Virus record (IMG/VR): IMGVR_UViG_3300036987_000548 | Location: 1-40,793 of that record | Direction: 5' to 3' (one strand) | Origin: a virus | Lineage: Duplodnaviria; Caudoviricetes | DNA: 40,793 bases | In this document: piece by piece, positions 2,293 through 30,478 of the stretch | How the letters are laid out: each line of letters begins with the position of its first letter | Numbering within the stretch: position 1 is the first letter of the stretch | Program-made: the position numbers and the translations under genes | The notes under the pieces: generated by a model | Database searches by the model: none | What the model was told of the DNA's origin: nothing | The model's input: only the letters and a program-made list of their open reading frames with translations

Positions 2293-4029
2293 TCACCAAA
2301 TTCTATAACCGTCATCCCCGCCGGCCATTAAGCCGTGGATATCCGATATGGCCCCGTATTCTCTTTCCGCCTCAGTTGCCGTTTCGAAGTCTTTTGCGGC
2401 ATAACTTGCCGGGGCAATAATCATATATTTTTTCGGATTGAGTCGAAGGCACTGCAGATTGATCAGATTACCGACCACTTCCCGTTTAACCACCTGAAAC
2501 GGCGCATTAGCCAGATTGTCTCCGTTTCTATCCTGAATCTCATCCGTTGACAGCTTTACATACGCCCCTGTTTTTACGCCGTCCCCGTCCTTTCGTTCAA
2601 CTCTGATAGAAACGATCGGCATGGGATCACGCGACTGGCTGACCAGGCGGGAAGCCGCATTCTTAACGAAAGCGGCCATAATTTCCTCGGTGTCGTAGCC
2701 GGATCGGAGCCAGCGGCAAAAAATTGCCTTTTCGACACTTGACCCGAATTCATTGATACTTTCCGCAGCGGTGTCTATTACAGTAGTTAACCGCTTGTAG
2801 CTGTTCGGCAGATCAACTTGTCCCACCGTATAGCGGTCCCAATAGATTGAACATTTTGATATCCGGGAATCCTGATTAAGATCCACCGACCCGGATTTAT
2901 CTACAATATTTTCTGCATCAGTCAGGGTTGCGTATGAGCGGCCCGGCATGTTGGGAAGGTTCCGTTTGATTGTAATTTTAAGATCTTCACCGACCCATGA
3001 CTTGCAGCCTAAGAGTTCTATAATCTCAAAATAAAGCGTGGCTGCGTTTACCGGTGCGCTAATAATCGCTGAAAAATCAACATCAACGGCCCCCGCGTCA
3101 TCGTCGCGTTCGCTGTCAAAGGTAGCGTCGTCAACATATCCGGCGGGAATGGCGCAGTCCGTCAGCAGTATTGTTTTGGCGTGGTCAAATCCGGAAGCCG
3201 GAGCAAAATACCGCACCTTTTGCACAGCATCATTTTCGGCGTGCGTAGCGGCTATGGTGTCAAAATATCCACGAGTCAAAGAGGAAATAATCTTGGTCGT
3301 GGTGTTAATCGCACCGTAATAAATAATTTCATCGCCTATCCGGACATACCCCGGAGCTGCGTCGAGACTGTCCACTCCGTCGCCGGAAAGGGTCAGTTGC
3401 ACTGCATCTATCGTCACGCCGGCGGCGCATTTGATATCAAGAATCGGCGGGATGGAAATATCATTTAGAGATTTCAGGATATCCGAAACCTCGACCGTGA
3501 CAACACCGCCGTTCACGCTCACATTTGATATTTTTCCAACAAACTTTTGTTCGTAATCTCCAACGGCCACACCGAGAAAACCTTCATAAACTTTAACAAT
3601 TCTACCCAGATAATTGGAATTTCTGGCCAGTAATTTTTTCCAAAACGACCCTTGAACAGAAGAGCGGTCTGAAAGGTAGGGATCAATGCCGACATCAGTG
3701 TCCGGTTCGTCATAAAATTCTATTTTAACAACAGCATTGACCGTGAGACTATCCTTAATCTCTGTAGGGTAATAGGTAATTGATTTAATATATGGCCTTT
3801 CGCCTGCTCCAAAAGGCAAGGGAGTATTAACGCTCGAAAAGGCATAATCTTTTGTTGATTTATTAAAATTAAAACGATCCCTGCATGTTGGAAATGTATT
3901 GTAACATTTGACTGCCGCCGTTGCCGTACAGGGGGCCGCACCAAAAACCTCCGCGCAATAATCCAGGCTCATAACCACGTAAATTATCGGAGTCCTGGCA
4001 ATCTTGGCTAGCTCGGCAGCGTAAGTCAT
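2293..4029 (-). CDS. Tail tip / hub protein
   Basis: Two genes downstream of the tape measure; GYVRIGDEII...TRGYFDTIAATH motif seen in siphovirus tail-tip proteins. Confidence 0.7.
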   Translation of the reverse strand: MTYAAELAKIARTPIIYVVMSLDYCAEVFGAAPCTATAAVKCYNTFPTCRDRFNFNKSTKDYAFSSVNTPLPFGAGERPYIKSITYYPTEIKDSLTVNAVVKIEFYDEPDTDVGIDPYLSDRSSVQGSFWKKLLARNSNYLGRIVKVYEGFLGVAVGDYEQKFVGKISNVSVNGGVVTVEVSDILKSLNDISIPPILDIKCAAGVTIDAVQLTLSGDGVDSLDAAPGYVRIGDEIIYYGAINTTTKIISSLTRGYFDTIAATHAENDAVQKVRYFAPASGFDHAKTILLTDCAIPAGYVDDATFDSERDDDAGAVDVDFSAIISAPVNAATLYFEIIELLGCKSWVGEDLKITIKRNLPNMPGRSYATLTDAENIVDKSGSVDLNQDSRISKCSIYWDRYTVGQVDLPNSYKRLTTVIDTAAESINEFGSSVEKAIFCRWLRSGYDTEEIMAAFVKNAASRLVSQSRDPMPIVSIRVERKDGDGVKTGAYVKLSTDEIQDRNGDNLANAPFQVVKREVVGNLINLQCLRLNPKKYMIIAPASYAAKDFETATEAEREYGAISDIHGLMAGGDDGYRIW

Positions 4030-4808
4030 TCCTTCACCCCCTCGAACTGCAGCGTGATTGACCGGTAATTGCTGCTCGTATAGGGCATAGACAAATTAAA
4101 ATTGTCCGGGATTTTGACAAAATAAACCTCGGTAGGATGGTTTGTAATTTCCCATGCCCAGAACACCGGGTATAACTGAGACAAATACGTATCCCACAAA
4201 GGCCGGAAAGTGTTCGTGATCCAAGCCGGTGTTATGACATCGAACGTCACTGTAATAATCCGCGACACATACGCCAACGCGCTGCCGATCAGGTTGCCCG
4301 TTTTGCTCCGGGTGCTTTCCGCAATGATTTTTTCAGGACCGGGATCGGAATTTTTGTCCACCGATAAGGTGCGGGGGAAGCTAACGCCTGGACCCAGAAA
4401 CGCCACGGCAATTTTTGCGGCAATCGCAGCAGTAACGATTTTTATCCGCCAGTATCTTTTTGTTTGAGTCGTGAAAATCTTTAAAAACGCCAGATTTGTC
4501 AATACGGTGAACCCGGCCAGGGCTACAATCGTTTCAGCGGCAAAATTATCAGCCGAACACTCCACCGACACCGTAGCCCCGCAGGTATAAAAGTTATGCC
4601 CCACGACCCCGAGGCAGTCACAGGCCGTGGGCGTGCCGCAATCAATCGTAATATACTTGGTGCCGTGGGCATTTGCCTGCCACCAGGTATAGGGACGCCT
4701 ATCCAGGATGTTCAAAACATCATAACCAGTTGCCGTATCCGTCGCGCTCGGCGTCCCCAGTTCAAACACATTCTGCGCTAAAACAAGCGGCTTCGCATTT
4801 TCAGCCAT
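4026..4808 (-). CDS. Distal-tail (Dit)-like protein with a discoidin/F5-8-like domain
   Basis: Directly follows the tape measure (TAATG overlap); YITIDCG...KRYWRIKI pattern. Confidence 0.6.
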   Translation of the reverse strand: MAENAKPLVLAQNVFELGTPSATDTATGYDVLNILDRRPYTWWQANAHGTKYITIDCGTPTACDCLGVVGHNFYTCGATVSVECSADNFAAETIVALAGFTVLTNLAFLKIFTTQTKRYWRIKIVTAAIAAKIAVAFLGPGVSFPRTLSVDKNSDPGPEKIIAESTRSKTGNLIGSALAYVSRIITVTFDVITPAWITNTFRPLWDTYLSQLYPVFWAWEITNHPTEVYFVKIPDNFNLSMPYTSSNYRSITLQFEGVKE

Positions 4809-11305: not shown

Positions 11306-11793
11306 TTATTAACCGCCCTTACGATATCCGCCGGGATCATTTCCAATATCCGAATAATCGCCGTTTCTTTCTCTGTAAGTCCCTTTTCAAACATATGTGC
11401 ACCTTTGGTGCCGCGCCGAGAGATCGCCCTGGCAATAAGAAATGCGATCGACTTGGCATCTTTTCCGCTATAGCCCAGCTTTTTCTCCACCCAGTGCTGA
11501 ATAGGTGCGACCGGTGGAAAATGCGGATTTGTGCCGTATTCCAGAGGTTCTCCGTATTTCGAGGGAGACCCAAGAATACCCGTAACCGGCTCGCCCATGT
11601 TGATCCTGTGAAATATCGTGTCCCGAAAATGAATCGGCCCGGCTCCAACCGGGACGCCTTTTTTAACCTCGCTCAACAATACAAGCAGCGCTTCGGTTAT
11701 CCGGCCTTTCCTTGCCGCGCGCGATTCCTCCGGATATGCCTTTGACAATTTAGGCAATGCTCTCAGATCAACTTTTAGGTTCGTATTAAGCAT
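11302..11793 (-). CDS. Neck protein, HK97 gp10-like
   Basis: YGEPLEYGTNPHFPP...IARAISRRGTKG motif; start moved to the ATG at 11793 (TAATG overlap with the upstream stop). Confidence 0.8.
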   Translation of the reverse strand: MLNTNLKVDLRALPKLSKAYPEESRAARKGRITEALLVLLSEVKKGVPVGAGPIHFRDTIFHRINMGEPVTGILGSPSKYGEPLEYGTNPHFPPVAPIQHWVEKKLGYSGKDAKSIAFLIARAISRRGTKGAHMFEKGLTEKETAIIRILEMIPADIVRAVNK

Positions 11794-12485
11794 TATCTGA
11801 ATTTCCTCGGGTGCGTTAAATGATCCTGCCTCCAACTCGGGAAAGAATCCTGATCCCTGGTTACGCTGGCCGGAGCGACTTTCCCCTCTTCAATGCCCAG
11901 GTGATCAAAATATTCTTTCCGGTATGTCCGCGCCCTGGCCGCATATTCGGCGGCCTTGCTCTTGTGATCGACGGAATCGGCCTGAATCGTGCTATCCTGC
12001 GTCTGGGCATAATATGTTGCCAGCATATTGCAAAAGCCTGCCGCCGCCAGCATTTGCACCGCTTCCTCGTCGGCTGTGGGGATAGTGCAGGCCGCGTCCG
12101 TGCAGGTGTGCAGCGTGGTATAGGTAATGCGCAGGGATTCCGTTGCCGCGGGCGTGTCTTCCAGGAAGCGGATCACTTTCCCTGCCGGTTTCTTGTAGAT
12201 TTGCCAGGCGTCGTCATCGAGGATCTCGGCGTCCGCATCGGTATCACCCACCGGGTACTCGATTTGCTTGATTGTCGAAAAGCCTTCCGACCAGGACGCC
12301 AGCAGCGTCAGGAGATAATCAAACCCGCCATTGCCGACCTCATCCTCGGTGATTTCCAGGGGACGATCCTGCGAGTACCGTTTAACCGCCTTGCTGATCG
12401 CCATGATCTTTTCCGCCTCGCCCAGCGGGAGATCTCCGCCGACCAGGTTCCCGATTGCCGTTATATAATCCTGCCTCGTGCCCAT
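11793..12485 (-). CDS. Head-tail adaptor / connector protein
   Basis: First gene of the neck block; helical N and C termini around a beta insert; GAGGA RBS. Confidence 0.6.
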   Translation of the reverse strand: MGTRQDYITAIGNLVGGDLPLGEAEKIMAISKAVKRYSQDRPLEITEDEVGNGGFDYLLTLLASWSEGFSTIKQIEYPVGDTDADAEILDDDAWQIYKKPAGKVIRFLEDTPAATESLRITYTTLHTCTDAACTIPTADEEAVQMLAAAGFCNMLATYYAQTQDSTIQADSVDHKSKAAEYAARARTYRKEYFDHLGIEEGKVAPASVTRDQDSFPSWRQDHLTHPRKFR

Positions 12486-12500
12486 ATGATCCTCACGTCT

Positions 12501-12581
12501 CTATTTTCGGCGCTTTCTTCGCCGCCGCTCTGCAGAAGCTCCAGATGTAAAAAAAATTATAATTAAAAGTAGCCAGATCAT
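12501..12581 (-). CDS. Micro-ORF MIWLLLIIIFFTSGASAERRRRKRRK (not in the ORF track)
   Basis: 26 codons filling the gap; hydrophobic core, A-S-A site, polybasic tail; weak RBS. Confidence 0.35.
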   Translation of the reverse strand: MIWLLLIIIFFTSGASAERRRRKRRK

Positions 12582-12594
12582 ACGCGCCTGCCCA

Positions 12595-15500
12595 TTACTG
12601 TGTTAATATCAATTTTATTGTTTCAAATTCAGGCTCAACCGAACAAGGCGCGTTTATCGCGCTGGTCGTAAATGTATAAATCGGGCGGCCATTGACTATT
12701 TGAGTGTCAGTTATTGATCCGCCGCAAGTACCCGCTTCCGTCTTGTATTTCCAGCCATCGTTTGGCGCGATAAGGAAAGTGGTCGGTGATCCGAAAGTAG
12801 CAAGCTGTGCCGGGCTTATCGTTCCGCCTAGTCCGCCGACAACGGAAGGGGTGACGAGGAGAGGATCGCAGGCTACAGATACCTCTTTATCTGCTGACAT
12901 ATCCAGAGGGCCGCAAGATGCACCGGAGCAATCTCCTGAATAAGTGGCGTTGTAATACCCTGCCGCGCAGAGCGTGGAAAGCGTGGGCGTTTCAGTGGAG
13001 TAATAGTCATATTCACAGTCAAACTCGTCCCCGCCGCACCTGATTCCTTGTATATCTGACGCAACAACCGAACCATCTGTAGGATAAGTCACGGTAAGTT
13101 TATATTTTGTATTCTCTGTCCACGTTGCCGTGACGGTTTCGGAACTTGCCGCTTTATTAAACGAGCAAGCACCTGTTCCAGAGCAAACCCCTCCTGACCA
13201 TCCGGCAAAGGTATGGTTATCGCCCGGTGTTTGTGTAACCGTGACCGCCGTGCCTGATGTGCGACCATAAGTACCGGCAACAGGGTCAGTCACACCTAAG
13301 CCAACATTAGTAATGATTAGCGGGTATTCCGTAGGAGTAACAATAAATTCTTTATCTACCGTTCTTGCCTCAGACATTGATACCGTGCAAGGGTCAGCGT
13401 CTGCCGTACCAGCGCAAGCCCCTGTCCATGCGCCATGACTGTTTCCGCTTGCAGGAGTAGCGGTTAGAGTGGTTGATGCACCAGACAGAAAGTTAAATCC
13501 ACAAGTGGCCCCGCAGTTAATCTCTGACAACGTACTCGTGACCGTTCCTGTTCCTGTCCCTGATTTGGTGACTTGTAGTAAATAATAAACTGGCGGGTCT
13601 GAGCCACCAGTAATATATCCCGTAACGCCTTCCTGCCCTGCCGTGTAAACACAACCGGCGGAATATCCAGTTAAGGGATGAGGACATGCTTCCGGTTCAT
13701 AGTATTCTGTCCATTTATCCGAAACACAGCGGTAAAGTTTATTTGAAGTCGTACTCCACCAAGCGGTGTTGGCAGTAGTACAGGCCGTCACTCCGCTGGT
13801 GGGGGTTGCTGTGCCATAACCAACGCCAGAAGTGCAGGTATCCAACGCTGTGCAGCTTGCTCCCTCCTGCGTGTAATAATCACGGTTTGGCAGAATAGTC
13901 CTTATGCCCGCATCCCCGAATATCTTAATTCTGTTGCCGCTTGCTCCCCCTAACGTATTCCCCCACATATACATAGGCACGCGAGTTTGTGCAGCGTTAG
14001 GAGTAAGGACATGTGCAACACTAACAGGGCCTAAAATACAAGCAACATTTTCTGCATCTGAACCAGTCGGAGTAAAGACCAATCCTGCTGTGCTTACTGC
14101 TTTAAACTCACAATGAATTAAAGAATGAGTTAAAGAGTTATCGTCAGTAGCTATGCACCAAGAAGGAGCTGTTGCGCCACCAAGACTAGGAGTTAAAGAC
14201 CTATTGGCTCCTGCCGACCACGAGGATACTTTATATCTTACTGCATAAGTTTTACCCACTTCGGGAGCAAGTAGGTCGTATGATACCGTCCCCGTTGCAC
14301 CGGCACTTTTGACGAGAGTGAAATCTGTTTTAGCCCAACCAACTCCCAGAGTCCAATTTGCCACCTTTTGGTAAAAACCCCCCTCGCCTCCAAGAAGATC
14401 AAAATTAACCGAAAATAAATCAGTGTCATACCCTCTGCCAATCTGGTCTCGGCAAGGATAACCATCTGAAATTCTATATTCATCTCCGGTGTCCCAATCG
14501 TTCTCTGTACCACCAAAAAGAGTGCAGGTAATTGTATTTGCGGTATTGGAAGCAATCAAGCACATACTCCCGTCAGTGATATTATAAACAGTAGTGCCGG
14601 GGCTTGTATCTGCCAATGAGTAGGCAAGTTTATTTGTGTTCCATGCCTTATTATCCCTTACACCAACTTCTCCTTCATCGGTAAGGACAGAGGCGTTATT
14701 GGCCCCAGTGTGTTTTCCGGTGAAGGTCGTGTTGCCGAAAAAACTTGTTATTTCTGGTCTGGTATGGTCAATGGTTTCGTTACCGTCATAGTCGGAACTG
14801 CCGTCACAAGGCCCAAATAAATGATCTGTTGTTGCTTCGGTTTTTGCCGCACTACCTCGTTCACTATCGACAGACATAATATATGACGTATAGGTAGACC
14901 CCAAACTATTATGATGAATGACCCCCGTTCCTGCTCTTGCCCGCAACATGAAACTTGCTGCGCTCGTAGTGGTAGCATTAGTCATTTTATTGTTATAGAA
15001 CTCAGACATTTGTGCGCCACGATGGAATACTGGAGTGTTCTGAGTGGCGTGAGTCGCAAAATATTTTAGATTGCTACTGCCAGTAGTATCTAGTGTAACA
15101 TCATTAAACCTGACGACAGTCCTTGCACCCTGCCCCCCGTCTGTAATGTAGGCATATACTGTTTCTGTAAAAGTACATCCCTCGATATAGACAACATTTT
15201 CATTAGCTGTTTTTCCAAGGGGTGGTAGTTGGGAAAATAGAGCATTAACATTGGTTGCTGATCCAGAAGTATAACCAGTATTGTTTATGCCTGATTGCAA
15301 GTTGCTTTTAGAAATAACCCCGTAAGCAGAAGTTAATCCCTCGGTTGCTACTGTAGGCTTGAAATAAATTTTCTTCACATGATCAGTGTCATGGATATAA
15401 AAGCGGAAAGGTGCGCCCCAAAAGCTAAGATCGCCATTAAATTTAATACCATATATTTCAAAAGGGATGCTCTTTTTTGCTGTGATTATAGGTGCCGTGC

Positions 15501-15756
15501 TGGTGCAGGTTGTATAGCTTCTGCTTACCCCTTTAATAATAAGTTCGGTTGGGGCAGTCCAAGTAACCATGCTGAAATTAGTAATAGCAAAAGTAGCAGT
15601 GGTTATATCTATCATAACCTCGCCTGCTTGTGTGGCCACCTCCGCCCGGCAAGTGTCAAAGGACTTCTCTGCCGTTACGGTGCAGGTATAGTCGGGGGCC
15701 GCCCACGCAAAACTCGTAAAGCAAAGCAGAAATATAATCGAAAGTAGTTTTTTCAT
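12595..15756 (-). CDS. Large exported Thr/Gly/Cys-rich multidomain protein (beta-helix-like N-terminal part, C-terminal InlB B-repeat-like units)
   Basis: Signal peptide MKKLLSIIFLLCFTSFAWA; repeated LxVTKSGTGTGTVTS...INCG..C...TLTATP.SG....WTGAC units; start at 15756 (ATGA overlap). Confidence 0.75.
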   Translation of the reverse strand: MKKLLSIIFLLCFTSFAWAAPDYTCTVTAEKSFDTCRAEVATQAGEVMIDITTATFAITNFSMVTWTAPTELIIKGVSRSYTTCTSTAPIITAKKSIPFEIYGIKFNGDLSFWGAPFRFYIHDTDHVKKIYFKPTVATEGLTSAYGVISKSNLQSGINNTGYTSGSATNVNALFSQLPPLGKTANENVVYIEGCTFTETVYAYITDGGQGARTVVRFNDVTLDTTGSSNLKYFATHATQNTPVFHRGAQMSEFYNNKMTNATTTSAASFMLRARAGTGVIHHNSLGSTYTSYIMSVDSERGSAAKTEATTDHLFGPCDGSSDYDGNETIDHTRPEITSFFGNTTFTGKHTGANNASVLTDEGEVGVRDNKAWNTNKLAYSLADTSPGTTVYNITDGSMCLIASNTANTITCTLFGGTENDWDTGDEYRISDGYPCRDQIGRGYDTDLFSVNFDLLGGEGGFYQKVANWTLGVGWAKTDFTLVKSAGATGTVSYDLLAPEVGKTYAVRYKVSSWSAGANRSLTPSLGGATAPSWCIATDDNSLTHSLIHCEFKAVSTAGLVFTPTGSDAENVACILGPVSVAHVLTPNAAQTRVPMYMWGNTLGGASGNRIKIFGDAGIRTILPNRDYYTQEGASCTALDTCTSGVGYGTATPTSGVTACTTANTAWWSTTSNKLYRCVSDKWTEYYEPEACPHPLTGYSAGCVYTAGQEGVTGYITGGSDPPVYYLLQVTKSGTGTGTVTSTLSEINCGATCGFNFLSGASTTLTATPASGNSHGAWTGACAGTADADPCTVSMSEARTVDKEFIVTPTEYPLIITNVGLGVTDPVAGTYGRTSGTAVTVTQTPGDNHTFAGWSGGVCSGTGACSFNKAASSETVTATWTENTKYKLTVTYPTDGSVVASDIQGIRCGGDEFDCEYDYYSTETPTLSTLCAAGYYNATYSGDCSGASCGPLDMSADKEVSVACDPLLVTPSVVGGLGGTISPAQLATFGSPTTFLIAPNDGWKYKTEAGTCGGSITDTQIVNGRPIYTFTTSAINAPCSVEPEFETIKLILTQ

Positions 15757-16562
15757 TGGGTACACCCTGTGGTGATTTCCGTATCATCATCAATCTTAAT
15801 GTTATCAAACTGGACAACGTAGTCGGCGACCGATGCCGTTCCCTGAGTGCCTCCGATTGTAACGTATCGGCCAACAACAGAACCAGACACAGTTGAAGTA
15901 TTATCGACGACTGTTTCCGAACTAGACCCATCGGACAAAGCTAAAGATATTCGGAATGTAGATTCATCAATGAAGTAAAACCTCACCCGATACCAAGTAT
16001 CAAGAGAAATTGTGGTTGTACTGTTCCCAACCAAGTCACTCGTTTGATTCAAAGCGTAGCTAAGTTTTAATGCTGTTCCGCTTACGTTTTGAACACTTAT
16101 TATTATGCTAGTTACGCTACCATCCAGCGTTGACCTAAACAGTCGTACAGATTCGTTATTGCCAAGACTATGCGAATGTAACAGAAAATAGAATTGTCCG
16201 GATAGGGTCGCCCTAGTGCCTCCCAAATCCTTATACAAATGAGTAGTTTCCGTGTCTTTGTTATCAATTACAATAGAGTAACTTCCCTTGTCGGCGCAAC
16301 TTAATGTGCCATAGGTGTTGGGAGCGACGTTATAAGCGATAGTGCTGTTCTCGCCCTTTACGGCATCGCCTAGACACGATGAGGCTGTCCCTTCTTCCGA
16401 ATCAACGCAAAATTGATCAGCGTCATCGGTAGTGCAACTACCAGCACAATGAACGGCAACCGCAGCACTTCCCCCCGGACACGGCCTCCCACTAACCACC
16501 GAGGCGGCATGAACCTGTACCGCAAAAATCAGTATTAAAAATAAACTAAGGTATTTTCTCAT
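15753..16562 (-). CDS. Exported protein with a LamG/ConA-like beta-sandwich
   Basis: Signal peptide MRKYLSLFLILIFAVQVHA; ISLDTWYRV...VQFDNIKI pattern; Cys-rich N-terminal linker. Confidence 0.7.
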   Translation of the reverse strand: MRKYLSLFLILIFAVQVHAASVVSGRPCPGGSAAVAVHCAGSCTTDDADQFCVDSEEGTASSCLGDAVKGENSTIAYNVAPNTYGTLSCADKGSYSIVIDNKDTETTHLYKDLGGTRATLSGQFYFLLHSHSLGNNESVRLFRSTLDGSVTSIIISVQNVSGTALKLSYALNQTSDLVGNSTTTISLDTWYRVRFYFIDESTFRISLALSDGSSSETVVDNTSTVSGSVVGRYVTIGGTQGTASVADYVVQFDNIKIDDDTEITTGCTQ

Positions 16563-16569
16563 AAATCAC

Positions 16570-17406
16570 CTATTGAGTAATCTTGTATTTAATGACCAGT
16601 GGGCCGGAATAGCTGGCCACTGTGGAGGCGTCATCTGTTTCATCATCGCCATCACGTGTAATTCTAATCACAAATAGTTGCCCTGCGGTCATAGCAGAAC
16701 GCCATCCTGTCAGCGTTGTCGGCCCCGCAGTTTCAACATCATCCTTAGCCCCGCTCCCGTCTGCCGTGTAAGCTAGATTAATTGGGTCGCCTAACGAGCC
16801 TGCATAAGCCGCGCTATCAGCGACAGAATCGAAACTAATTACATAATCATGGTCAGCAGTATCAGTATTATCCAACTTGATTTTAAACGTAGCAACGAGG
16901 TCAACAGAAGTATCTATGTCAGACGGGACAACAAGATAATACTCCGCAAAATTATTGTCTTCTACAGTACCGGAAAACTTACACTGCCCAAAGGTATTCG
17001 TTGTTGAAGTGGTCTGCATAGGCGCAGCAGAGCCACACACATGAGGATGGGTAAGGATAAGATAGCCCCAGCTCTTCAGTACGTTTCCTGTCCCGTCAAC
17101 ATCAAGGGTTTTGTTGGTTAGCGTTTCAGAAGTTGCCGGACCGGAAAAGTCTGAATTACAATCAACAACCGGCCCGGTGGAATTATAGGTGCAAGCTTTT
17201 CCATTGGTTAAAGTTCCGGCGGGTAAAGGCGTTCCTGCGGCCTTTAACTTTTTGCCGGTTGGGCCGTCATAAACAGCGGATTGACCGTCTGTGGCTGAAG
17301 CCGGGCCGGTAACATCGCCGCCGCCGAGAGTGGAACCGCTGGGCCCGCCGAATGCGGACGATACCAGGCAGAGTAATATAATTAGAATCAAATATATTTT
17401 TTTCAT
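16570..17406 (-). CDS. Exported phage-fibre-like protein
   Basis: Signal peptide MKKIYLILIILLCLVSSAFG; fibre-shaft-like motifs GDVTGPASATDGQSAVYDGPTGKKLK and SETLTNKTLD; C-terminal beta-rich domain. Confidence 0.65.
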   Translation of the reverse strand: MKKIYLILIILLCLVSSAFGGPSGSTLGGGDVTGPASATDGQSAVYDGPTGKKLKAAGTPLPAGTLTNGKACTYNSTGPVVDCNSDFSGPATSETLTNKTLDVDGTGNVLKSWGYLILTHPHVCGSAAPMQTTSTTNTFGQCKFSGTVEDNNFAEYYLVVPSDIDTSVDLVATFKIKLDNTDTADHDYVISFDSVADSAAYAGSLGDPINLAYTADGSGAKDDVETAGPTTLTGWRSAMTAGQLFVIRITRDGDDETDDASTVASYSGPLVIKYKITQ

Positions 17407-17415
17407 AATGATCTC

Positions 17416-17832
17416 CTATTGGTCGTATTGTACCTGCCAGGCATAAGATCCGCCGCCGGCAACGCTGCTCGAGACATAGACGCCGGTAATCGCCGTACCC
17501 GCGACATTATTCACCGCCGGAGAATAGCCATAAGTAAAGACGCGCTGACTGCCTGCAATGACCAGCGTCTCCACAAGCACCGGACCGGAAGCTGCCGTAT
17601 TGCCGTAGATCTTTATAGTCACGGCATTTGTGCCGTCGGTAAGCACCGTTACTCCATAATAGGCACAGGCACCCGTCACGGCCACACCGCTGGCTGTGCC
17701 CCAGGCGCTTGTCTTTGCTACCTGCACCTGCCCCACGCCGGATGTCAGGGACATCCAGTCCGCCCTGGCAGGAAATACCAGGGCAAATACCATCAGTAGC
17801 CCGCAGATGATTTTCAGAAAATGATTTTTCAT
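17416..17832 (-). CDS. Exported small beta-rich (jelly-roll-like) protein
   Basis: Signal peptide ending VFPARA; all-beta mature part; GGAGG RBS. Confidence 0.7.
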   Translation of the reverse strand: MKNHFLKIICGLLMVFALVFPARADWMSLTSGVGQVQVAKTSAWGTASGVAVTGACAYYGVTVLTDGTNAVTIKIYGNTAASGPVLVETLVIAGSQRVFTYGYSPAVNNVAGTAITGVYVSSSVAGGGSYAWQVQYDQ

Positions 17833-17876
17833 TTTAAACCTCCATTTTTCCCGGATCCGGATTCCGGATCCTAATT

Positions 17877-17937
17877 CTGGATCCCGATTTTCATCGGGAT
17901 GACGACTTTCATCCTTGAACCTTTGTCCTTGAGCCTT
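17877..17937. repeat. REP-like palindrome plus heptamer array copy 2
   Basis: CTGGATCCCGATTTTCATCGGGATGAC (17877-17903); CCTT x4 at 7-bp period (17913-17937). Confidence 0.8.
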
Positions 17938-18433
17938 AATTCTTAAATACTCCCGCTATGCTGAACGTGAAACTCGTCCCGCCAACGGTGTAATAAATCC
18001 GCAGATAATTGCCGAAGTTGGTGATCGCCTGCCGGTATTGTCCCGTTGCCGTGATCTGGCTTATGGTCGTGTGCGTGTACCAGGTCACATTATCCGGGGA
18101 AGTCTGGATGATAATATCCAGCGTTGATGTTGCTGCCTCGGCGGTCACATCGACGAAGATCTGCCCTTCGGTATAGGCAGAGACATCAAAGCCGGTTGAT
18201 TGCGCCGTCGCGGCAGTTTTTACTCCCGAGGAGAGGTAAGTTATTACCCTGGTTTTCCGATCTTCGGCCTGGGCGGAGGTGATAAATGCCAAAATCAGGG
18301 TCACAGCCAGGGCAAAAACCAATCCAGAAATTAAAATTTGCCGCCCAGGAGCGTTTTTTACCCCTCCGGACGCCTCAACATAGCCATTTTTTCTTTTTAG
18401 GGCCTTAAAAACGATTTTAACGCGATCCATCAT
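17936..18433 (-). CDS. Exported small jelly-roll protein resembling capsid cement proteins
   Basis: Hydrophobic segment ending ITSAQA; mature LDIIIQTSPDNVTW...NYLRIYYTVGG recalls Bbp16-type cement proteins; start moved to 18433 (GGAGG at 18441-18445). Confidence 0.62.
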   Translation of the reverse strand: MMDRVKIVFKALKRKNGYVEASGGVKNAPGRQILISGLVFALAVTLILAFITSAQAEDRKTRVITYLSSGVKTAATAQSTGFDVSAYTEGQIFVDVTAEAATSTLDIIIQTSPDNVTWYTHTTISQITATGQYRQAITNFGNYLRIYYTVGGTSFTFSIAGVFKN

Positions 18434-18478
18434 CTTGAAACCTCCTGTGTCAGCGTAACGCAATCGGCGACAACTTTT

Positions 18479-19627
18479 CTAAATAAGGGGTTTAGGCCTT
18501 AACCTTGCTCCTTCAACCTTGGTCCTTGATCCTTCTTTTTCCCAAATCCCCAGCCAGACAACTCCCAGCAGCGCCGTCGGCGCAATGTGAAAAAGATGCC
18601 AGCCGAAACAGGCCACGGCCACCGCCGTTATTCCAGCCGCCGCCTGCGGTGAAACCGGTTTGCTTAAAATCGTCCACCCGATAACGAGCAGAAAACCGGC
18701 AATCAGCAATAATGTCTGCACGCCCAGCTCAAAAGCAGCCTGCACGTATTCGTTGTGGGCCTGCGCGAAAACATTGCTCATTACCAGTTTATTTCCTTCG
18801 TTCGCCACTTCGCCGATCCGTTTATCTCCGGACGCCAAAAGCGGGAAAACCATCTCCCAGCTGCCGAGGCCTCGCCCCAGATATTCCGCCTGCATGGACA
18901 TTGCCGCATGTTTCCAGGCGATCCAGCGCGGGCATTGGACAATGCTGTCGATGGAGTCCACTTTCCAAAACCAGACGGACATACCCAGGCAAAGCAAGAC
19001 AGAGGCAAAGACGACCGCTTTTTTGCCCCAGTCCTGGCGAATGATAAAAATAATCCCGGCACCGGCGGCGGCAATCATTGCGGTGCTGGCTTGGGCTACG
19101 ACGATCCCGGCAAGAACAAAGGGGATAAACAGCCACCAGCCCCGGCGCAGAAATGCCGGCAGGCATAGGGCTAAAAAGACGCCTGCGGAGTCAGGATTAA
19201 ACGGGCCGGAGTATTGCGTGCCGAACCAGACGCGCAGCCAGCCGAAATACTGTGCCAGCATCCACAGAAGAAGCAGGCTGGCAGCGAGACACAGCGCATC
19301 CATCGCTCTGTCTTTGTCGATCCGGCTGATCCCTTCTGCCGCCGCGAGAAATATGGCGATCATCAGGAGTCCGATGTAGGCGTCATAGGATGGCGGCATA
19401 ATTGTTGCCGTCCTGCCCATCGCCAGCAAAAAGAAGCCGCGCCACCACCAGCTGGAGAGAAGGGCGGCAAAGGCCACCCCTCCCAGCCAGATAGATGCCA
19501 ACTGCCAGGACAATCGAAGCTCCATGCCCATTATCGGGATGATGCAAAACATCAGTCCCGGTATTGCCGCCAGCAATGTTATTTGAACAAGGGGTTGCAA
19601 CCCCTTGTTCTCTCGCCTCTCGTTCAT
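18479..19627 (-). CDS. O-antigen ligase / O-oligosaccharyltransferase family polytopic membrane protein (Wzy_C)
   Basis: About 10-12 hydrophobic segments; GPFNPD, RWIAWK, LGRGLGSW and AHNEYVQAAFELG match the WaaL/PglL periplasmic-loop signature. Confidence 0.85.
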   Translation of the reverse strand: MNERRENKGLQPLVQITLLAAIPGLMFCIIPIMGMELRLSWQLASIWLGGVAFAALLSSWWWRGFFLLAMGRTATIMPPSYDAYIGLLMIAIFLAAAEGISRIDKDRAMDALCLAASLLLLWMLAQYFGWLRVWFGTQYSGPFNPDSAGVFLALCLPAFLRRGWWLFIPFVLAGIVVAQASTAMIAAAGAGIIFIIRQDWGKKAVVFASVLLCLGMSVWFWKVDSIDSIVQCPRWIAWKHAAMSMQAEYLGRGLGSWEMVFPLLASGDKRIGEVANEGNKLVMSNVFAQAHNEYVQAAFELGVQTLLLIAGFLLVIGWTILSKPVSPQAAAGITAVAVACFGWHLFHIAPTALLGVVWLGIWEKEGSRTKVEGARLRPKPLI

Positions 19628-20107
19628 TTAGTAGGCAGCCCCCGCAGAATTCGGTATTGTCAGGTGAATATAATATTTGGTCGACGTCGCGGCGGCGGCA
19701 GATCCCGGCAATACCCACCCCAATGCCTGGGCGTTGGTCGGTGCCGTAGTTGTGATGGCTCCGGCAGTTGCCGCATCAAGGAAAAGTCTTGCGCCCGGAC
19801 TGGCTGCCGTCATGCCGGTAATAACTCCGGAAACGACAACTTCTACATAGGCGCCTGCTGCTCCTCCCTTGCCAATGACTCCTACTGCCGGTCGTAAAGT
19901 CGAAACGTCGGCGTCGGCTTTCCAGATTGCGCCGGTACTGGGTAAAATCGCGACAACATCGCCGGCGACTAAAGTTTCACCGGCCAGCCCGGTGAACCGG
20001 CTGTTTTTTTGCTGCCAGCTTATCGCCGCCCATGACGGCACGGTAAATGCCAGCAGCATTACAAACATCAGGACAAGCCCGATTATTTTGGTGTGAATTC
20101 TGTTCAT
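19628..20107 (-). CDS. Capsid decoration-like protein (DUF2190 / beta-tulip type) with an N-terminal signal peptide
   Basis: Directly after the capsid gene; AGETLVAGDVV...KADA...AVGV...VEVVVSGVI...GARLFL...GAITTTAP pattern; leader MNRIHTKIIGLVLMFVMLLAFTVPSWA. Confidence 0.72.
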   Translation of the reverse strand: MNRIHTKIIGLVLMFVMLLAFTVPSWAAISWQQKNSRFTGLAGETLVAGDVVAILPSTGAIWKADADVSTLRPAVGVIGKGGAAGAYVEVVVSGVITGMTAASPGARLFLDAATAGAITTTAPTNAQALGWVLPGSAAAATSTKYYIHLTIPNSAGAAY

Positions 20108-20133
20108 TTTGTACCTCCCTCTTTTTTTGGTTG

Positions 20134-20172
20134 AGGCGGAGAGCCGGGGTTTTTACACCAACTCTCCAGCCT
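20134..20172 (-). other. Stem-loop downstream of the capsid gene (mRNA stabiliser or partial terminator)
   Basis: AGGCTGGAGAGTTGG...CCGGCTCTCCGCCT with G-U pairs on the - strand; no U-tract in that direction. Confidence 0.5.
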
Positions 20173-20217
20173 GTAGTTTTTCCTTGAACCTTGCGCCTCG
20201 AACCTCGAACCTATTTC

Positions 20218-22653
20218 CTAAGCCACAACCGCTTTATAACCGCTGCGGAAGTCGATGACCGCGCCCGCATATTCGTGGCGGATCTTGTGGCGGATCTTGT
20301 CGGCCACGAAGACCTGCTCGGATTGCGGCATGTCGGCGACAAACAGCTCCGGTTCCTCGCGCCCGTTGAGATACCCCATTTCCACCATGTCGATCAGCTG
20401 CGGCGGCAGCAGGAGACCCCAGTCATTGGCGTCCGTAAAGAGAGGTACGACGACCGGGTTGACCTTGCCTTTGAGCGAATTAGGAACTTTGGTGGTCAGA
20501 TCGTTGGCGGTATAATAGAAATCTTCCGACGCGATTTTCTCAATCGTTTCCATGATATCTATCGGGCCAACCAGGTTGGGCTTCACGCTGGGATCCGAGA
20601 GGAGGCCGATCCTTTCGCCGGAATCCTTTTCCGTCATTGAGCCGAGCGCTTTATAGGCGATCAGCGCGGTGGCATGAGTCAGCGCCGCCGCTCCCAGGTT
20701 GACGTGCAAACCAGCCCCGGTGAACCAGGCGGTTCCGTCGGAGCAGTTCGCGTTGTTGATAAAGAAATTCCAGACGTACTTCGCATGCGTGCGCCTTGCC
20801 GCCCGGCTCAGACCGTCAATCAGGCGCTGAATGATGCTGATATCGTCGTTGATGATGGTCTTGCGGGTGATGGTCAGGAGGTTGCCCTTCTGCCCGATCT
20901 GGTAAGTGGACTCTTCATCCGTCACGCCGGCGATCTCCACATAATCAGCCGCTTCCGGATCAACGGTGGCAAGATCAGGGAATCCGCCGACCAGGACTGC
21001 TTCCTGAGTGCGAAAATCCTTGACCGGCTTTTTCACGCTGATCAGCAGCTCTTCCAGATAAGAAAGCGCCTTATAAATCCCGACCAGCCTGCGGCCCAGG
21101 GTATTGCCCAGGACAAAGGTGAACGTCGCGCTGTTGATGTCCATGCTGCTGCGCAATTCCGCTGGCAGAGCTTTGCGATTGAAGCGTCCGTTTACTTCCG
21201 GATCCCCGGTGAAGTAAGCGTACATTTCCCGGAGGCCGGAAAAAGCGGGGACGCTGTCGAAATCGTTATAATCCTGGACATTGCGGACGTCGGAGAAAAA
21301 CGGCTTGTTGTCCAGCCGGGTCAATTTGGCCAGGTTGACCATGTCGTCTTTCTTGAGCCCGAACATTCGATCCGCCGCCATGCAGGCGCGCTCAAATGAG
21401 CCTAATCCGCCGGTGATGGTGCCGCTAGGAATACCGTCATTGCCGGGTGCGGCGGTGCTAATTTTGGCCAGATAGTCCTTTTCGTCGGCGATGGTCTTAT
21501 CGAGATCCGCCGCTGCAAAAGCCCGGCCCTCAAACGTCTTTTTGATTCGGTCGATGGCCACCTGCGGCAGCCCCAGCGTGGTATCGGCCAGTTTTGCTGT
21601 GAGCGCCATCCCGCAGCGGAAAATTTCCAGGTCGCCTTTTGTTGCGACATTGGAAAGGTCTATTTTATCTTTTTCCTGCGGCTCCATCGCCATGCGGGCC
21701 AGCCCTTCGATTTCCTGATCGGAAATGGTCGTGACGTCTTTCCCTTTCAGGAGGTCCGGCCTTTTCTCGCCAATCAACTTCAATAAAGCTTCTCTCATTT
21801 TATCCTCCTTGTTATGGGCCGGCACGCTGGCCACTGCCCGGTTAAATTTCCCGCCTGCGGCGGGCCTTGTGACGATATCCACCGAATCGGCGGATAAAAA
21901 TTTATTAATTTTGAATACTTCTTTGCCGTCCACCACGGCCTTCGCCGCCCGCACCGGGCAATCATAGGAAAGCCCGTAAATTGCCGCGCCTTTTTCTTTT
22001 GCCGTCAGGATATTTTTCCCCAGCCATTTAGCGGAATCCAGAAAATGTAAAACGCCTTGCAAACCGACACCGGCAGCATGTTTCACGCCATCGATCCAGC
22101 CTACTTTGTTTTTCACGAGCAGGGATTTCAGATCAAATAACGGATCGGGCAGGTGAGTCGCCCCCTGGGGAAGCTCAAAAAGATTGACATCGACATTTTC
22201 AAAAAGACCGGCGGCAACGCGGATAGCCTCATCCGGAATATACCAGCCGTTTTTTGTGAAGCCAGGCTCGCAGATGGTGACGTCCCAGGCAGTGCCCTCG
22301 GTATTTTTCGCCGCATCCAGGCGCATGAGCATTTCCATGCCTTCATCGGATTCCGCCTGCGCGGATCGCGCTTCCACCCAGGTCTGCTCGACTTCCGTCG
22401 GCGTTTCGCCCAAAGTGACTTTTCCGTCCAGAATCGACCAGGCAATTTTGAAGCAGTGCTCTTCCTGCTCATAGATGAGATATGACGGATAAACCTCGCG
22501 CAGCCAGGTGTCGATTTCCACCGGGGCATTATCCGATCCGGTACGGGTTAGTTTAAAACGATCCCGAATCGCCTGGCGCAGCAAATCGCGGATATCGTCC
22601 AGGCTGAGCTCCGCCCCTTTCGCCCGCTGATTTTGTTTGTCTTTTTTGTTCAT
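20218..22653 (-). CDS. Prohead protease - scaffold - major capsid protein fusion
   Basis: N-terminal TKNGWY...GLSYD...SVDIVTRPAAGG protease motifs; C-terminal VKDFR...TITRKTIINDD HK97-fold capsid pattern; internal RBS and ATG at 21798. Confidence 0.85.
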   Translation of the reverse strand: MNKKDKQNQRAKGAELSLDDIRDLLRQAIRDRFKLTRTGSDNAPVEIDTWLREVYPSYLIYEQEEHCFKIAWSILDGKVTLGETPTEVEQTWVEARSAQAESDEGMEMLMRLDAAKNTEGTAWDVTICEPGFTKNGWYIPDEAIRVAAGLFENVDVNLFELPQGATHLPDPLFDLKSLLVKNKVGWIDGVKHAAGVGLQGVLHFLDSAKWLGKNILTAKEKGAAIYGLSYDCPVRAAKAVVDGKEVFKINKFLSADSVDIVTRPAAGGKFNRAVASVPAHNKEDKMREALLKLIGEKRPDLLKGKDVTTISDQEIEGLARMAMEPQEKDKIDLSNVATKGDLEIFRCGMALTAKLADTTLGLPQVAIDRIKKTFEGRAFAAADLDKTIADEKDYLAKISTAAPGNDGIPSGTITGGLGSFERACMAADRMFGLKKDDMVNLAKLTRLDNKPFFSDVRNVQDYNDFDSVPAFSGLREMYAYFTGDPEVNGRFNRKALPAELRSSMDINSATFTFVLGNTLGRRLVGIYKALSYLEELLISVKKPVKDFRTQEAVLVGGFPDLATVDPEAADYVEIAGVTDEESTYQIGQKGNLLTITRKTIINDDISIIQRLIDGLSRAARRTHAKYVWNFFINNANCSDGTAWFTGAGLHVNLGAAALTHATALIAYKALGSMTEKDSGERIGLLSDPSVKPNLVGPIDIMETIEKIASEDFYYTANDLTTKVPNSLKGKVNPVVVPLFTDANDWGLLLPPQLIDMVEMGYLNGREEPELFVADMPQSEQVFVADKIRHKIRHEYAGAVIDFRSGYKAVVA

Positions 22654-22697
22654 ATTAGCCTCGCTTCGCTTTTAACCTTTAACCTTGTACCTTGATC

Positions 22698-22955
22698 CTA
22701 TTTCCCCGCGATCACTTTGCGCTTTACCGGGTTGACGCCGGTAATAGCAATCTGCCCGAGCTTTTCCGGTTTATCGCCTTCTTTGAAGCGCACTTTGGAC
22801 CCGCCGATTGTGACAATAACGGCTTCCTGGGTTTGCTGATCGTAACGGCTGCCCAGGACGTATTTCTTGTCAATCCCGTAAGCCGCCAGTGCCATCGCTA
22901 TTAATTTGTCGCCGATTGTGTTTTTGTCTTTTCCCTGATTTTCTTTTTCTTCCAT
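22698..22955 (-). CDS. Hypothetical protein in the head module
   Basis: 85 aa ORF with purine-rich RBS, bounded by heptamer arrays. Confidence 0.7.
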   Translation of the reverse strand: MEEKENQGKDKNTIGDKLIAMALAAYGIDKKYVLGSRYDQQTQEAVIVTIGGSKVRFKEGDKPEKLGQIAITGVNPVKRKVIAGK

Positions 22956-23028
22956 TTCCCGTTCCCCCTTAAAATGATTTTAAATTCCTTTACCTTGAAC
23001 CTTTGACCTTTTGCCTTGTTCCTGTTTT

Positions 23029-23844
23029 TTATGCTGCTTGCTGTTTTTGCTCCGTCCATTCGGCCATGTAGGGCACCGTGTAACAACTGCAATTGATCGT
23101 GTTGCCGGGCGATCCCGCGAGATCTCGCGGATACATCAGCGCTTCACCGCCGACCATGAATGGTTCATTTACGTCCCGGATTTGCCCCTCTGCCGCCAGA
23201 TGCGATAATCGCGGCACCCGAGATGTGCCGTGTTGCCATTGCTTTTTTAATCCGGGGACAACTTCCGCCGCTTTTTCCATCCGCGCCTGGCTCGCCTCCT
23301 CGAGGATCCGGCCACATTCCTGCCGGGTAATGGTCTCTGCCCGTGATGCGATGGAAGTAAATACCGACTTGTCTTTGAGGTTCGTGCCTACGGCCTGCAT
23401 GACCTCATACGGCGTTTTCTGCCCCATCAGGCCTGTCGCCATCTCGTTATAAATTTTAGCCGCCGCGTCCGCGCCCAACGATTCCACCAGGTGGGCAGAA
23501 TAATTTTGCATCGCGATCAGCATTCCCGTATCAATTGCCGGGAGAGCAATTGTGATGCCGACCGAATTGAGCGGCTTATCCACCATTGTCTGCCCGAATT
23601 CCCAGAAGTCTTTTTGATCCTGGGTTAATTCTTTGCTGTAACGCGCGGCAAACTCCTGCATGGCCTTATCGACGGCAGACTTCAACCGGGGCAGGTAATG
23701 GAGCTGCCAGTCCGTTTCAGCCACGGCAGCGGCAACCTGCTTGCGGGCGACATTGAGCTGGCGGATGGCTTTGGCCACCTGCGTGTCGGTCATGCTCTCC
23801 GCCTTAGCAATCAGTGCCTGCACCTGTTTGTCGTATTTAGTCAT
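23029..23844 (-). CDS. Minor head protein (Mu gpF / SPP1 gp7 family)
   Basis: RAETITRQE, KKQWQH, RLSHLAAEGQ, LMYPRD, NTINCSC motifs. Confidence 0.88.
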   Translation of the reverse strand: MTKYDKQVQALIAKAESMTDTQVAKAIRQLNVARKQVAAAVAETDWQLHYLPRLKSAVDKAMQEFAARYSKELTQDQKDFWEFGQTMVDKPLNSVGITIALPAIDTGMLIAMQNYSAHLVESLGADAAAKIYNEMATGLMGQKTPYEVMQAVGTNLKDKSVFTSIASRAETITRQECGRILEEASQARMEKAAEVVPGLKKQWQHGTSRVPRLSHLAAEGQIRDVNEPFMVGGEALMYPRDLAGSPGNTINCSCYTVPYMAEWTEQKQQAA

Positions 23845-29530: not shown

Positions 29531-30427
29531 CTATTCCAGTGTCAACTTGAGTTGCCGTGCGGCGCTTTTGTGATCTAACACCTTTAACGCTTCATATTCC
29601 GTTTTGATTCCGTCTTTTGTTTCCCATGTTATAATTTTAAGGGCCAATTCCAAAATATCTCCTTTAGAAAAGGCTATCAGATTATCATTTACCTTGCGTA
29701 AAAATTCTTCATCTTTGATCGTAACAAAAAAGGTATTTGATCCATCAGACAAACGCCACTTATTGTCTTCCTTGAAACTCAATGAATGTATGGAATACAA
29801 TGCCGTGGTATCCTTTTCCTGGATAATCTCTTCGGCGATATCGGGTGTGCGAAAATATTTATATTCACTTTTTTCGATCACTTCTATGACTTGCTGGTTA
29901 TCCTTGACGATAAACTTATCAATGCCTTCAACAGATAAAGGTTTAACAACGTTTTCCGCCTGCTGCCTGACCTTCAGGTCGCGGTAAAGGTCAAATACTT
30001 CCTTCGTGACAATTTCAATTTCATCTGTAAAATCTATTTCGATGTTACCATCTTGTAAGATTTTCGCCTTCCTGGGTTGTCGTCCTTTTGCCTTTTTAAT
30101 TAGATAAAACAATCCCTTAAAACCTAATACGGAAAAGCCTAAGAATTGAACAAGATTAGCAGCGGCAGTAGCTTGCTTGCCGGAAAGCATCTCAATTAAC
30201 TGTGTAGCGAAGCCCTGGATAACTTCAAAGGAAATACCGAAAGAGCCATCTTCGAATTTCTTTACTTTAACGGACACTTCGGTCTTGCCATCGTTTAGTA
30301 CGCGATTGCTTTCTTCCAGAAGAGATCCCATCGCTAAAAGAGCTGGGGCAAGCTCCCTGACATCCATCTGTCCGCTTTCAAGGATATCACCGCTGTAAAA
30401 TACTTTAAATGAAGTCTTACTATTCAT
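29531..30427 (-). CDS. Uncharacterised AT-rich moron protein (possible C-terminal OB-like domain)
   Basis: 298 aa; MDVRELAPALLA...GSFGI and FKEDNKWRLSDG...FSKGDIL; no Shine-Dalgarno sequence, possible leaderless promoter. Confidence 0.75.
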   Translation of the reverse strand: MNSKTSFKVFYSGDILESGQMDVRELAPALLAMGSLLEESNRVLNDGKTEVSVKVKKFEDGSFGISFEVIQGFATQLIEMLSGKQATAAANLVQFLGFSVLGFKGLFYLIKKAKGRQPRKAKILQDGNIEIDFTDEIEIVTKEVFDLYRDLKVRQQAENVVKPLSVEGIDKFIVKDNQQVIEVIEKSEYKYFRTPDIAEEIIQEKDTTALYSIHSLSFKEDNKWRLSDGSNTFFVTIKDEEFLRKVNDNLIAFSKGDILELALKIITWETKDGIKTEYEALKVLDHKSAARQLKLTLE

Positions 30428-30478
30428 GGCATGAAAGATAACATATTTAGAATTTGCTGCATATAAAAAAGAGTATAA

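Follow-up and report, generated by a model that had tools for sequence, protein, structure and literature searches.

The stretch of viral DNA considered here (40,793 nucleotides; IMG/VR record IMGVR_UViG_3300036987_000548, positions 1 to 40,793; hereafter the window) is the genome of a Mu-like transposable phage whose minus strand encodes a transposase, an AAA protein, Gam, GemA, a Mu gp27 small terminase, Mu F and a protease-capsid fusion. Our subject is a cassette of seven genes within its head module. An initial annotation had placed six genes for proteins with Sec-type leaders, plus one for a Wzy_C-type membrane enzyme, between the capsid gene and the head-tail adaptor, and had proposed that the phage exports its decoration and fibre subunits, has them glycosylated and picks them up at lysis. 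All seven genes are indeed present and co-oriented, on the minus strand at 12595-20107, between the protease-capsid gene (20218-22653) and a putative adaptor gene (11793-12485), and the translations contain each of the six leader ends that had been listed (PSWA, SAQA, PARA, SAFG, QVHA and FAWA). The features are as follows.

20218-22653, minus strand: protease-capsid fusion gene, leaderless (context; Pfam Phage_capsid_4, E 1e-30; PHROG head families)
20108-20217, minus strand: spacer with a hairpin that lacks a sense U-tract, then a strong GGAGG ribosome site (from comparison with the spacers of relatives)
19628-20107, minus strand: first protein, a leader-bearing beta-tulip capsid decoration ('cement') protein, 159 amino acids (model, Foldseek, profile, tail columns)
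18479-19627, minus strand: Wzy_C-family polytopic membrane enzyme, 382 amino acids, predicted O-oligosaccharyltransferase (Pfam, conserved residues)
17936-18433, minus strand: second exported protein, leader-bearing and DUF6385-like, 165 amino acids from the ATG (ESM Atlas fold, conservation)
17416-17832, minus strand: leader-bearing 138-amino-acid protein, likely a fibre linker (five relatives, all with a leader)
16570-17406, minus strand: leader-bearing fibre segment, 278 amino acids (44% identity to P0190; weak PHROG tail-fibre match)
15753-16562, minus strand: leader-bearing 269-amino-acid protein with seven Cys, possibly a lectin-like payload (weak Pfam SO2946-like_C match, E 0.002)
12595-15756, minus strand: leader-bearing 1053-amino-acid adhesin-like protein with InlB-type B-repeats (Pfam Flg_new_2; 12 homologues)
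11793-12485, minus strand: putative head-tail adaptor (context; labelled by position, with no family match; a neck1 homologue follows, and the gene is conserved in relatives)

The overlaps that had been described, TAAATG from the first gene into the enzyme gene and ATGA at 15756-15753, are present. The tight coupling claimed for the cassette holds at four junctions; elsewhere the genes are separated by spacers of 110 nucleotides (after the capsid gene), 45 (after the enzyme gene), 103 (before 17832) and 109 (before the adaptor gene).

The window's enzyme is on record on a 195,938-base contig, and the window phage is therefore likely a prophage. The closest named locus, at 48% identity, lies in a Syntrophobacterales genome bin; strong matches to the first protein (E below 1e-45) occur in 6 of 339 genomes of that bin's class, and the single strong match among 401 genomes drawn across the phylum is the bin itself. 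Three other named bins, assigned to Verrucomicrobiales, Bacteroidales and Desulfobacterales, hold an enzyme in phage context, bearing in mind that bins can misplace phage contigs. All four bins belong to diderm groups.

Leaders and the decoration fold

Leaders were called by a heuristic (a basic start, nine hydrophobic residues, then small-x-Ala/Gly), and our leader calls rest on it together with conservation. In related loci this heuristic called leaders on none of 51 capsid, 25 portal and 12 terminase proteins, on 2 of 25 adaptor proteins and on 88 of 527 unlabelled proteins; in the window it called none on the capsid, portal, terminase, neck and tail proteins. Among homologues of the first protein in the fetched loci, a leader was called in all 58 distinct sequences. 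At 56 residues counted from the ATG at 18433, about 35 of which form the n-region, the SAQA leader of the second exported protein is unusually long, and the heuristic missed it in the window itself. Among homologues of this second protein, position -1 is Ala or Gly and position -3 is a small residue in 49 of the 49 that could be placed, five more being unplaceable; their leaders vary freely, and the mature part is 70-85% identical among relatives. With controls near zero on capsid, portal and terminase proteins, and with the -3/-1 pattern conserved, the leader calls go beyond chance, in line with the initial annotation. Lipoprotein export and twin-arginine (Tat) export of the cassette proteins were considered and rejected: we found no Tat motif, no first-protein homologue has a lipobox, and a lipobox-like pattern occurs in just two second-protein homologues.

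Judged from its structure model (predicted local distance difference test score of 95, with the C-terminal tail as coil), the mature first protein adopts the beta-tulip fold of capsid decoration proteins. Comparison of mature domains with virion structures, which had been proposed as a check, bears this out: Foldseek matched the mature protein to chains from capsid structures, best to Adjutor (E 7e-5), with further matches to HFTV1, phiCD508, TW1, Sf11, Pam3, the phi29 head-fibre base, YSD1 and lambda gpD, and a first-protein profile matches residues 132-235 of the A-1(L) neck fibre protein gp82 (E 1.4e-9). According to excerpts of PMC10966104, this bead domain of gp82 is part of a fibre that assembles by itself and then attaches to the virion, and the gp82 structure was modelled from Met1. 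The fold is common to the beta-tulip decoration and head-fibre base proteins (lambda gpD, TW1, Pam3, HFTV1, phi29 gp8.5; Pfam Phage_cement_2) and to gp82; as for the decoration proteins, the gene of the first protein adjoins the capsid gene, and long forms carry a fibre extension. Known beta-tulip decoration proteins are made in the cytoplasm and are not known to have a leader, whereas all 58 homologues of the first protein in the fetched loci keep one. HFTV1 was also considered as a precedent for exported, glycosylated head parts and set aside, as the excerpts of its description make no mention of signal peptides or secretion.

More widely, the N-terminal decoration domain was found in 115 of the best 150 of 9,792 profile matches, with a called leader in 85 of the 115. 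Several of the 30 leaderless homologues (some of which are cut or mis-started) begin with Met exactly at the mature start; therefore the decoration domain appears, on sequence grounds, to have one cytoplasmic and one exported form. A context scan for leaderless close homologues returned leader-bearing Mu-like forms plus one fibre-end match, and another scan was blank.

Two side observations concern this domain and its neighbourhood. In a phage tail module at L249:8980-13048, and also in L242, a leaderless protein combines the decoration domain with a C-terminal Thr run; next to it downstream come a GT4 glycosyltransferase (Pfam, above cut-off) and then other glycosyltransferase-like and methyltransferase-like genes (labelled by eye), and the gene after a tape-measure-like gene likewise ends in a Ser/Thr run. 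This module is possibly a cytoplasmic counterpart of the exported decoration system. An additional gene with a leader, about 140-150 codons long, lies between the Mu F gene and a small pre-capsid gene at L091:4208-4627 and, again upstream of the capsid gene, in L050.

A Wzy_C-family enzyme behind a leader-bearing gene

The 382-amino-acid enzyme is predicted from its sequence to be an O-oligosaccharyltransferase (O-OTase). Its own match to Wzy_C (E 1.3e-5, 25.4 bits) falls under the Pfam cut-off of 31.7, but all 13 aligned relatives match the domain, PF04932 is found on 76 of 80 homologues and the relative from L236 passes the cut-off; the assignment to a Wzy_C-type membrane enzyme stands. An NCBIfam search gave nothing useful. 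The enzyme has nine or more hydrophobic segments and a large loop at residues 221-300, with basic residues on alternate loops suggesting its topology. Within the loop, R234, W238, G251, G253, H291, N292 and E293 are 97-100% conserved over 80 aligned rows, and R234 and H291, conserved in 99% of these rows, may be the equivalents of WaaL residues.

Excerpts of two papers bear on this family: a conserved His is required in Wzy_C enzymes (PMC9829042, PMC12800693), and dedicated OTases are encoded directly behind the gene for their acceptor (PMC9829042). The TfpM-pilin, TfpO-PilA and PglS-ComP pairs (PMC9829042, excerpts) resemble the window pair in having a Wzy_C enzyme with a conserved His behind one exported acceptor, here a candidate, and in both cases a hydroxyl residue lies near the acceptor's C-terminus. 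The window pair differs in being phage-encoded, in having a partner with a capsid-decoration fold rather than a pilin, in the position of the putative acceptor Ser (sixth from the end, rather than last) and in the length of the enzyme, which is 420-470 amino acids for TfpM and TfpO. The O-antigen ligase WaaL (PF04932; C. metallidurans 7TPG/7TPJ, cited in excerpts of PMC12800693) is likewise polytopic, with Arg and His in a large predicted periplasmic loop; the window enzyme, in contrast, is encoded in a phage head operon instead of a lipopolysaccharide locus, and its acceptor is likely a protein.

We scanned viral, genome and metagenome contigs (the last scan covering the best 80 of 157) and obtained 175 enzyme loci, which form 85 clusters at 60% identity; we dropped 20 clusters in which the gene upstream was truncated, absent or more than 400 nucleotides away. 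The search for Wzy_C genes beside capsid genes, with co-occurring leaders, that the initial annotation had called for was productive: in the remaining 65 clusters, a leader-bearing gene lies directly upstream of the enzyme in 56 and a capsid gene within 6.5 kb in 44. These 65 include five cellular-context rows, four of which are without an upstream leader-bearing gene; three of the dropped clusters were checked, and each has a leader-type gene upstream. The pairing extends beyond Mu-like phages. A capsid match was found in 20 of 26 non-Mu viral loci with scanned neighbours, in nine PHROG families (the window adds a tenth capsid family), and several of these loci have T7-like or P22-like portals. 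By sequence, the 49 distinct upstream partners from non-Mu phages make up five groups plus eight singletons, only five partners having a beta-tulip profile; as the groups are unlinked in sequence, different folds carry the leader before the enzyme. Since the pairing recurs in many phages, those that have it are likely to finish and sugar-coat outer parts outside the host cytoplasm.

In a quick enzyme tree, five cellular-context rows and two metagenome rows group on long branches. One cellular-context row, the enzyme at L097:7509-8798, belongs to the phage-type group and nests among phage rows, although its gene context is cellular and polysaccharide-like; exchange between hosts and phages is possible in this instance. 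Some phages (L080-L082, L215, L228) have two enzyme-like genes near terminase and portal genes, one of them encoding 611 amino acids.

We found no description of this combination in the literature, subscription journals and bioRxiv supplements lying outside the coverage of the search. We conclude that the head-module system is real, widespread and undescribed; its anatomy is well supported, and what follows on its chemistry and its place in the virion is what we infer from that anatomy.

Exchange of enzyme and fibre

Among the Mu-like relatives, the enzyme and a protein fibre carried on the decoration protein are mutually exclusive, a relationship newly seen here. Where the module is resolved, a short first protein occurs with the enzyme in 27 relatives and alone in 3, and a long form, which is the first protein extended by a fibre, occurs with the enzyme in none and alone in 19 (p 8e-11, uncorrected for kinship). 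On a capsid tree (FastTree) the states are scattered, with at least 12 changes, four of them forced by well-supported branches, and eight enzyme-less loci contain no enzyme remnants.

The short form ends in P-x-S-x-G-A-G/A-Y at the point where the long form runs on into its fibre. Position -6 in the 32 enzyme-bearing short forms is Ser in 28, encoded by both codon families (19 TCN, 9 AGY), Thr in two, Asn in one and Pro in one; in the six enzyme-less short forms it is Asn in five and Thr in one (p 2e-4, for a column picked after viewing 12 tail columns). The last residue is Tyr in 28 of the 32 enzyme-bearing forms, the Ser or Thr lying at -6 and not at the end. In the window this residue is Ser154, which the model places in a flexible tail and which we predict to be the acceptor. 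Prophages fetched later include one short form with the enzyme, which has Ser at -6, and four long forms that, without the enzyme, run straight into the second gene. One later-fetched genome repeats a long-plus-short arrangement without the enzyme; such tandem long and short decoration genes are seen at L116:~3100-4640, L239 and L247, where the short one keeps Thr at -6. An overlapping ribosome site was rejected as the cause of the conserved tail, because the distance to the enzyme start ranges from an overlap to more than 70 nucleotides and the Ser is encoded by codons of both families.

There is direct support for the order of the genes, the folds, the conservation of the leaders and of catalytic-type residues, the recurrent pairing and, within one slot, the exchange of short form plus enzyme for long fibre. 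On this basis we favour, as somewhat better than an even bet, a reading in which the first protein is exported, O-glycosylated with host glycan and bound to heads at lysis, the glycan replacing a fibre. The decoration proteins would be sent to the periplasm via their predicted leaders, with probable cleavage by signal peptidase I. There the enzyme would attach a host lipid-carried glycan, presumably from an undecaprenyl-pyrophosphate-linked donor, to the putative acceptor Ser154 in the tail of the first protein. The exported parts would then bind completed heads once lysis has broken the inner membrane, and the glycan may substitute for a protein head fibre, serving as a shield or a host-mimicking coat. 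Lambda gpD and T4 Soc are known to bind finished heads in vitro.

Several points weigh against this reading of the cassette. The evidence behind it consists of sequence and model comparisons; a tblastn search of 50,697 phage records with the enzyme, the first protein and two distant enzymes found no match in a cultured phage. Besides its sub-threshold Wzy_C score, the enzyme has no sequence match in the PDB by profile search, and the Wzy_C domain alone does not distinguish WaaL from OTases. With respect to the tail, P-8, G-4 and A-3 also differ in the forms without the enzyme, whose origin may lie in just two or three lineages; of the enzyme-bearing forms, two are without Ser or Thr at -6, and one enzyme-less form keeps Thr; and the non-Mu partners share no such tail. 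The largest payload protein resembles a host surface protein. Finally, 22 of the 49 resolved relatives keep the leader while having no enzyme (19 long forms, 3 short). As predicted export persists in these, glycosylation, which had been advanced as a purpose of export, is not its sole reason, and export presumably has a benefit of its own, perhaps in separating sticky fibres and disulfide-rich adhesins from heads under assembly.

This last observation also fits an alternative that we regard as unlikely, in which the exported decoration proteins join the virion at lysis and the enzyme acts elsewhere, adding O-antigen to host lipopolysaccharide, glycosylating host pili at a late stage of infection or modifying another acceptor. 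The Wzy_C domain covers both WaaL and OTases (PMC12800693, excerpts), and outside the Mu-like group there is no universal acceptor motif, both of which would suit such an enzyme; it would leave unexplained, however, why the enzyme gene directly follows a leader-bearing gene in 56 of 65 clusters, why none of the 19 long fibre forms has an enzyme, and the tail Ser.

Payload genes, probable late expression and wider meaning

The second exported protein has a DUF6385-like fold, and the same predicted fold occurs in ESM Atlas models of proteins with Mu gp36 and gp6-type connector domains and also in a cluster in which 10% of members contain Bbp16; the models make it likely to be a second decoration or neck piece. 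Of the proteins encoded downstream, that of 138 amino acids precedes a leaderless Mtd-domain protein in two relatives. Residues 85-277 of the 278-amino-acid protein are 44% identical, over 202 residues, to the distal, C-terminal part of P0190, a cement-domain fibre protein. The 269-amino-acid protein has no relative among the fetched loci. The 1053-amino-acid protein has no C-terminal anchor that we could find and partly resembles a Smithellaceae CFI-box-CTERM protein, one of its 12 homologues. For the DUF6385-like profile and the last three genes, sequence searches of the PDB gave either nothing or irrelevant matches.

Relatives have leaderless Mtd-domain proteins and LamG or CBM proteins in the same slot, and we regard the downstream exported genes as an interchangeable fibre and adhesin payload. 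Composition suggests a conserved core with a recently acquired payload: G+C content at third codon positions (GC3) is 0.56-0.66 in the front four genes and 0.67 and 0.69 in the capsid and adaptor genes, as against 0.39-0.43 in the last three. Cys counts follow a similar division, the mature parts of the first three exported proteins having 0, 0 and 1 and those of the last three 4, 7 and 31. The conserved core having no Cys, disulfide folding is rejected as the reason for its export; the general disulfide rationale that had been offered thus fails, and survives for the last three genes only.

Some further arrangements were seen around this slot. At L029:906-5013 and L150:1904-4415, leader-bearing genes precede a leaderless Mtd-domain protein in the head-neck slot; behind that of L029 is a reverse transcriptase, which suggests a diversity-generating retroelement that targets a head or neck appendage. 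Fibre-like genes with leaders are present, too, at the tail-fibre end of one Mu-like prophage (L243:807-2475) and behind the lysis genes of another prophage (L250:11264-15134), with no enzyme in the stretches read. The last four exported proteins of the window (gene ends 12595, 15753, 16570 and 17416) end in TQ, TQ, TQ and DQ, probably as a by-product of overlapping ribosome sites and ATGA, although this does not explain the end of the last gene.

The cassette had been taken for late genes without an internal promoter, rather than for a moron. Promoter-like sites in 11500-23500 are indeed at chance level (14, compared with 12.4 +/- 2.8 in shuffles). In relatives, the post-capsid spacer has a median length of 94 nucleotides and usually contains a hairpin and a strong ribosome site, a sense terminator-like pattern being found in just 2 of 52; by sequence, these features fit read-through from the capsid gene. 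The late-gene assignment is therefore favoured for the front four genes, which have no promoter excess, a rare terminator and capsid-like GC3, and do not show the moron traits of own promoter and terminator, foreign composition and sporadic position; for the last three genes it is weakened by their lower GC3. Separately, the window spacers 17833-17935, 20108-20217 and 18490-18535 contain palindromes and CCTTGAACCTTG-like repeats, which also have matches on many further contigs from the probable source run and are likely host-type repeats; contigs from that run show the stretch to be intact there. A moron-like segment lies elsewhere in the window, between the early and late regions (29531-31150), where a 298-amino-acid familyless protein (G+C content 0.39) is encoded with a dCTP deaminase-like protein.

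These data bear on a second alternative, which we consider slightly less probable still than an enzyme acting elsewhere: that the cassette uses recycled virion folds to build a periplasmic or surface structure of the host cell (a decoy, a superinfection block or an adhesin), its proteins never joining the virion. All six proteins have leaders, the largest resembles the host CTERM surface protein, and the GC3 of the last three genes is set apart from the 0.56-0.69 of the front, capsid and adaptor genes. Such a structure is hard to reconcile with the constant placement of the cassette right after the capsid gene in ten capsid families, with the sequence in front of it, which in 50 of 52 relatives combines a strong ribosome site with the lack of a sense terminator, and with the lack of promoter excess; the window proteins have no C-terminal anchor and the first-protein homologues no lipobox, and the slot also holds leaderless Mtd and lectin proteins. 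That the leaders are uncleaved anchors holding the decoration proteins in the inner membrane, so that heads leave tethered to or wrapped in glycan-bearing membrane fragments, is improbable: the leaders are long and very hydrophobic, with that n-region of about 35 residues in the second, but the -1 and -3 residues conserved in 49 of 49 homologues stand directly before the conserved mature start, and leaderless homologues start at the same point.

We thus return to export, glycosylation and pick-up at lysis, the scheme of the initial annotation, which is upheld in its virion folds, conserved leaders, recurring pairing and non-moron front end, and loses its disulfide rationale for the core and glycosylation as the sole reason for export. 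The usual view of tailed phages is that the whole particle is put together in the cytoplasm. At just short of even confidence, we suggest that a widespread group of tailed phages divides the making of its particles between the cytoplasm, for heads and tails, and the periplasm, for decorations and fibres; that a phage OTase there hangs a host O-antigen or capsule chain on the decoration protein; that lysis mixes the two sets, the glycan being an interchangeable alternative to a protein head fibre; and that the virion therefore wears the sugar coat of its last host.

Filamentous phage coat proteins carry Sec leaders, stay in the membrane and are assembled during extrusion. The window system would share with them the passage of virion proteins through the host export machinery, as predicted here, yet the phage here is tailed and of HK97 type, and its capsid, portal and tail proteins are leaderless. 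The nearest phage precedent is mycobacteriophage virion glycosylation (Freeman et al. 2023), in which, as in our proposal, a phage-encoded enzyme is thought to put glycans on virion proteins. In mycobacteriophages, soluble glycosyltransferases reportedly do so in the cytoplasm, on capsid or tail proteins. The window system differs in its lipid-donor-type membrane enzyme and exported acceptors, and a Pfam scan found no soluble glycosyltransferase among the 49 window proteins. The abstract of PMC11256854 agrees with the cytoplasmic, soluble-enzyme picture for mycobacteriophages, and their virion glycosylation is cited in excerpts of PMC12582341.

The reading names a testable enzyme, acceptor and residues (His291, Ser154), and the enzyme family offers a pool of small (350-420 amino acids), diverse candidate O-OTases with short tail tags for bioconjugation. 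If the system works as read, a periplasmic route would give tailed phages disulfide-rich adhesins and host-derived glycan coats, and a host-dependent, epigenetic surface of this kind could alter adsorption, persistence, grazing and immune recognition.

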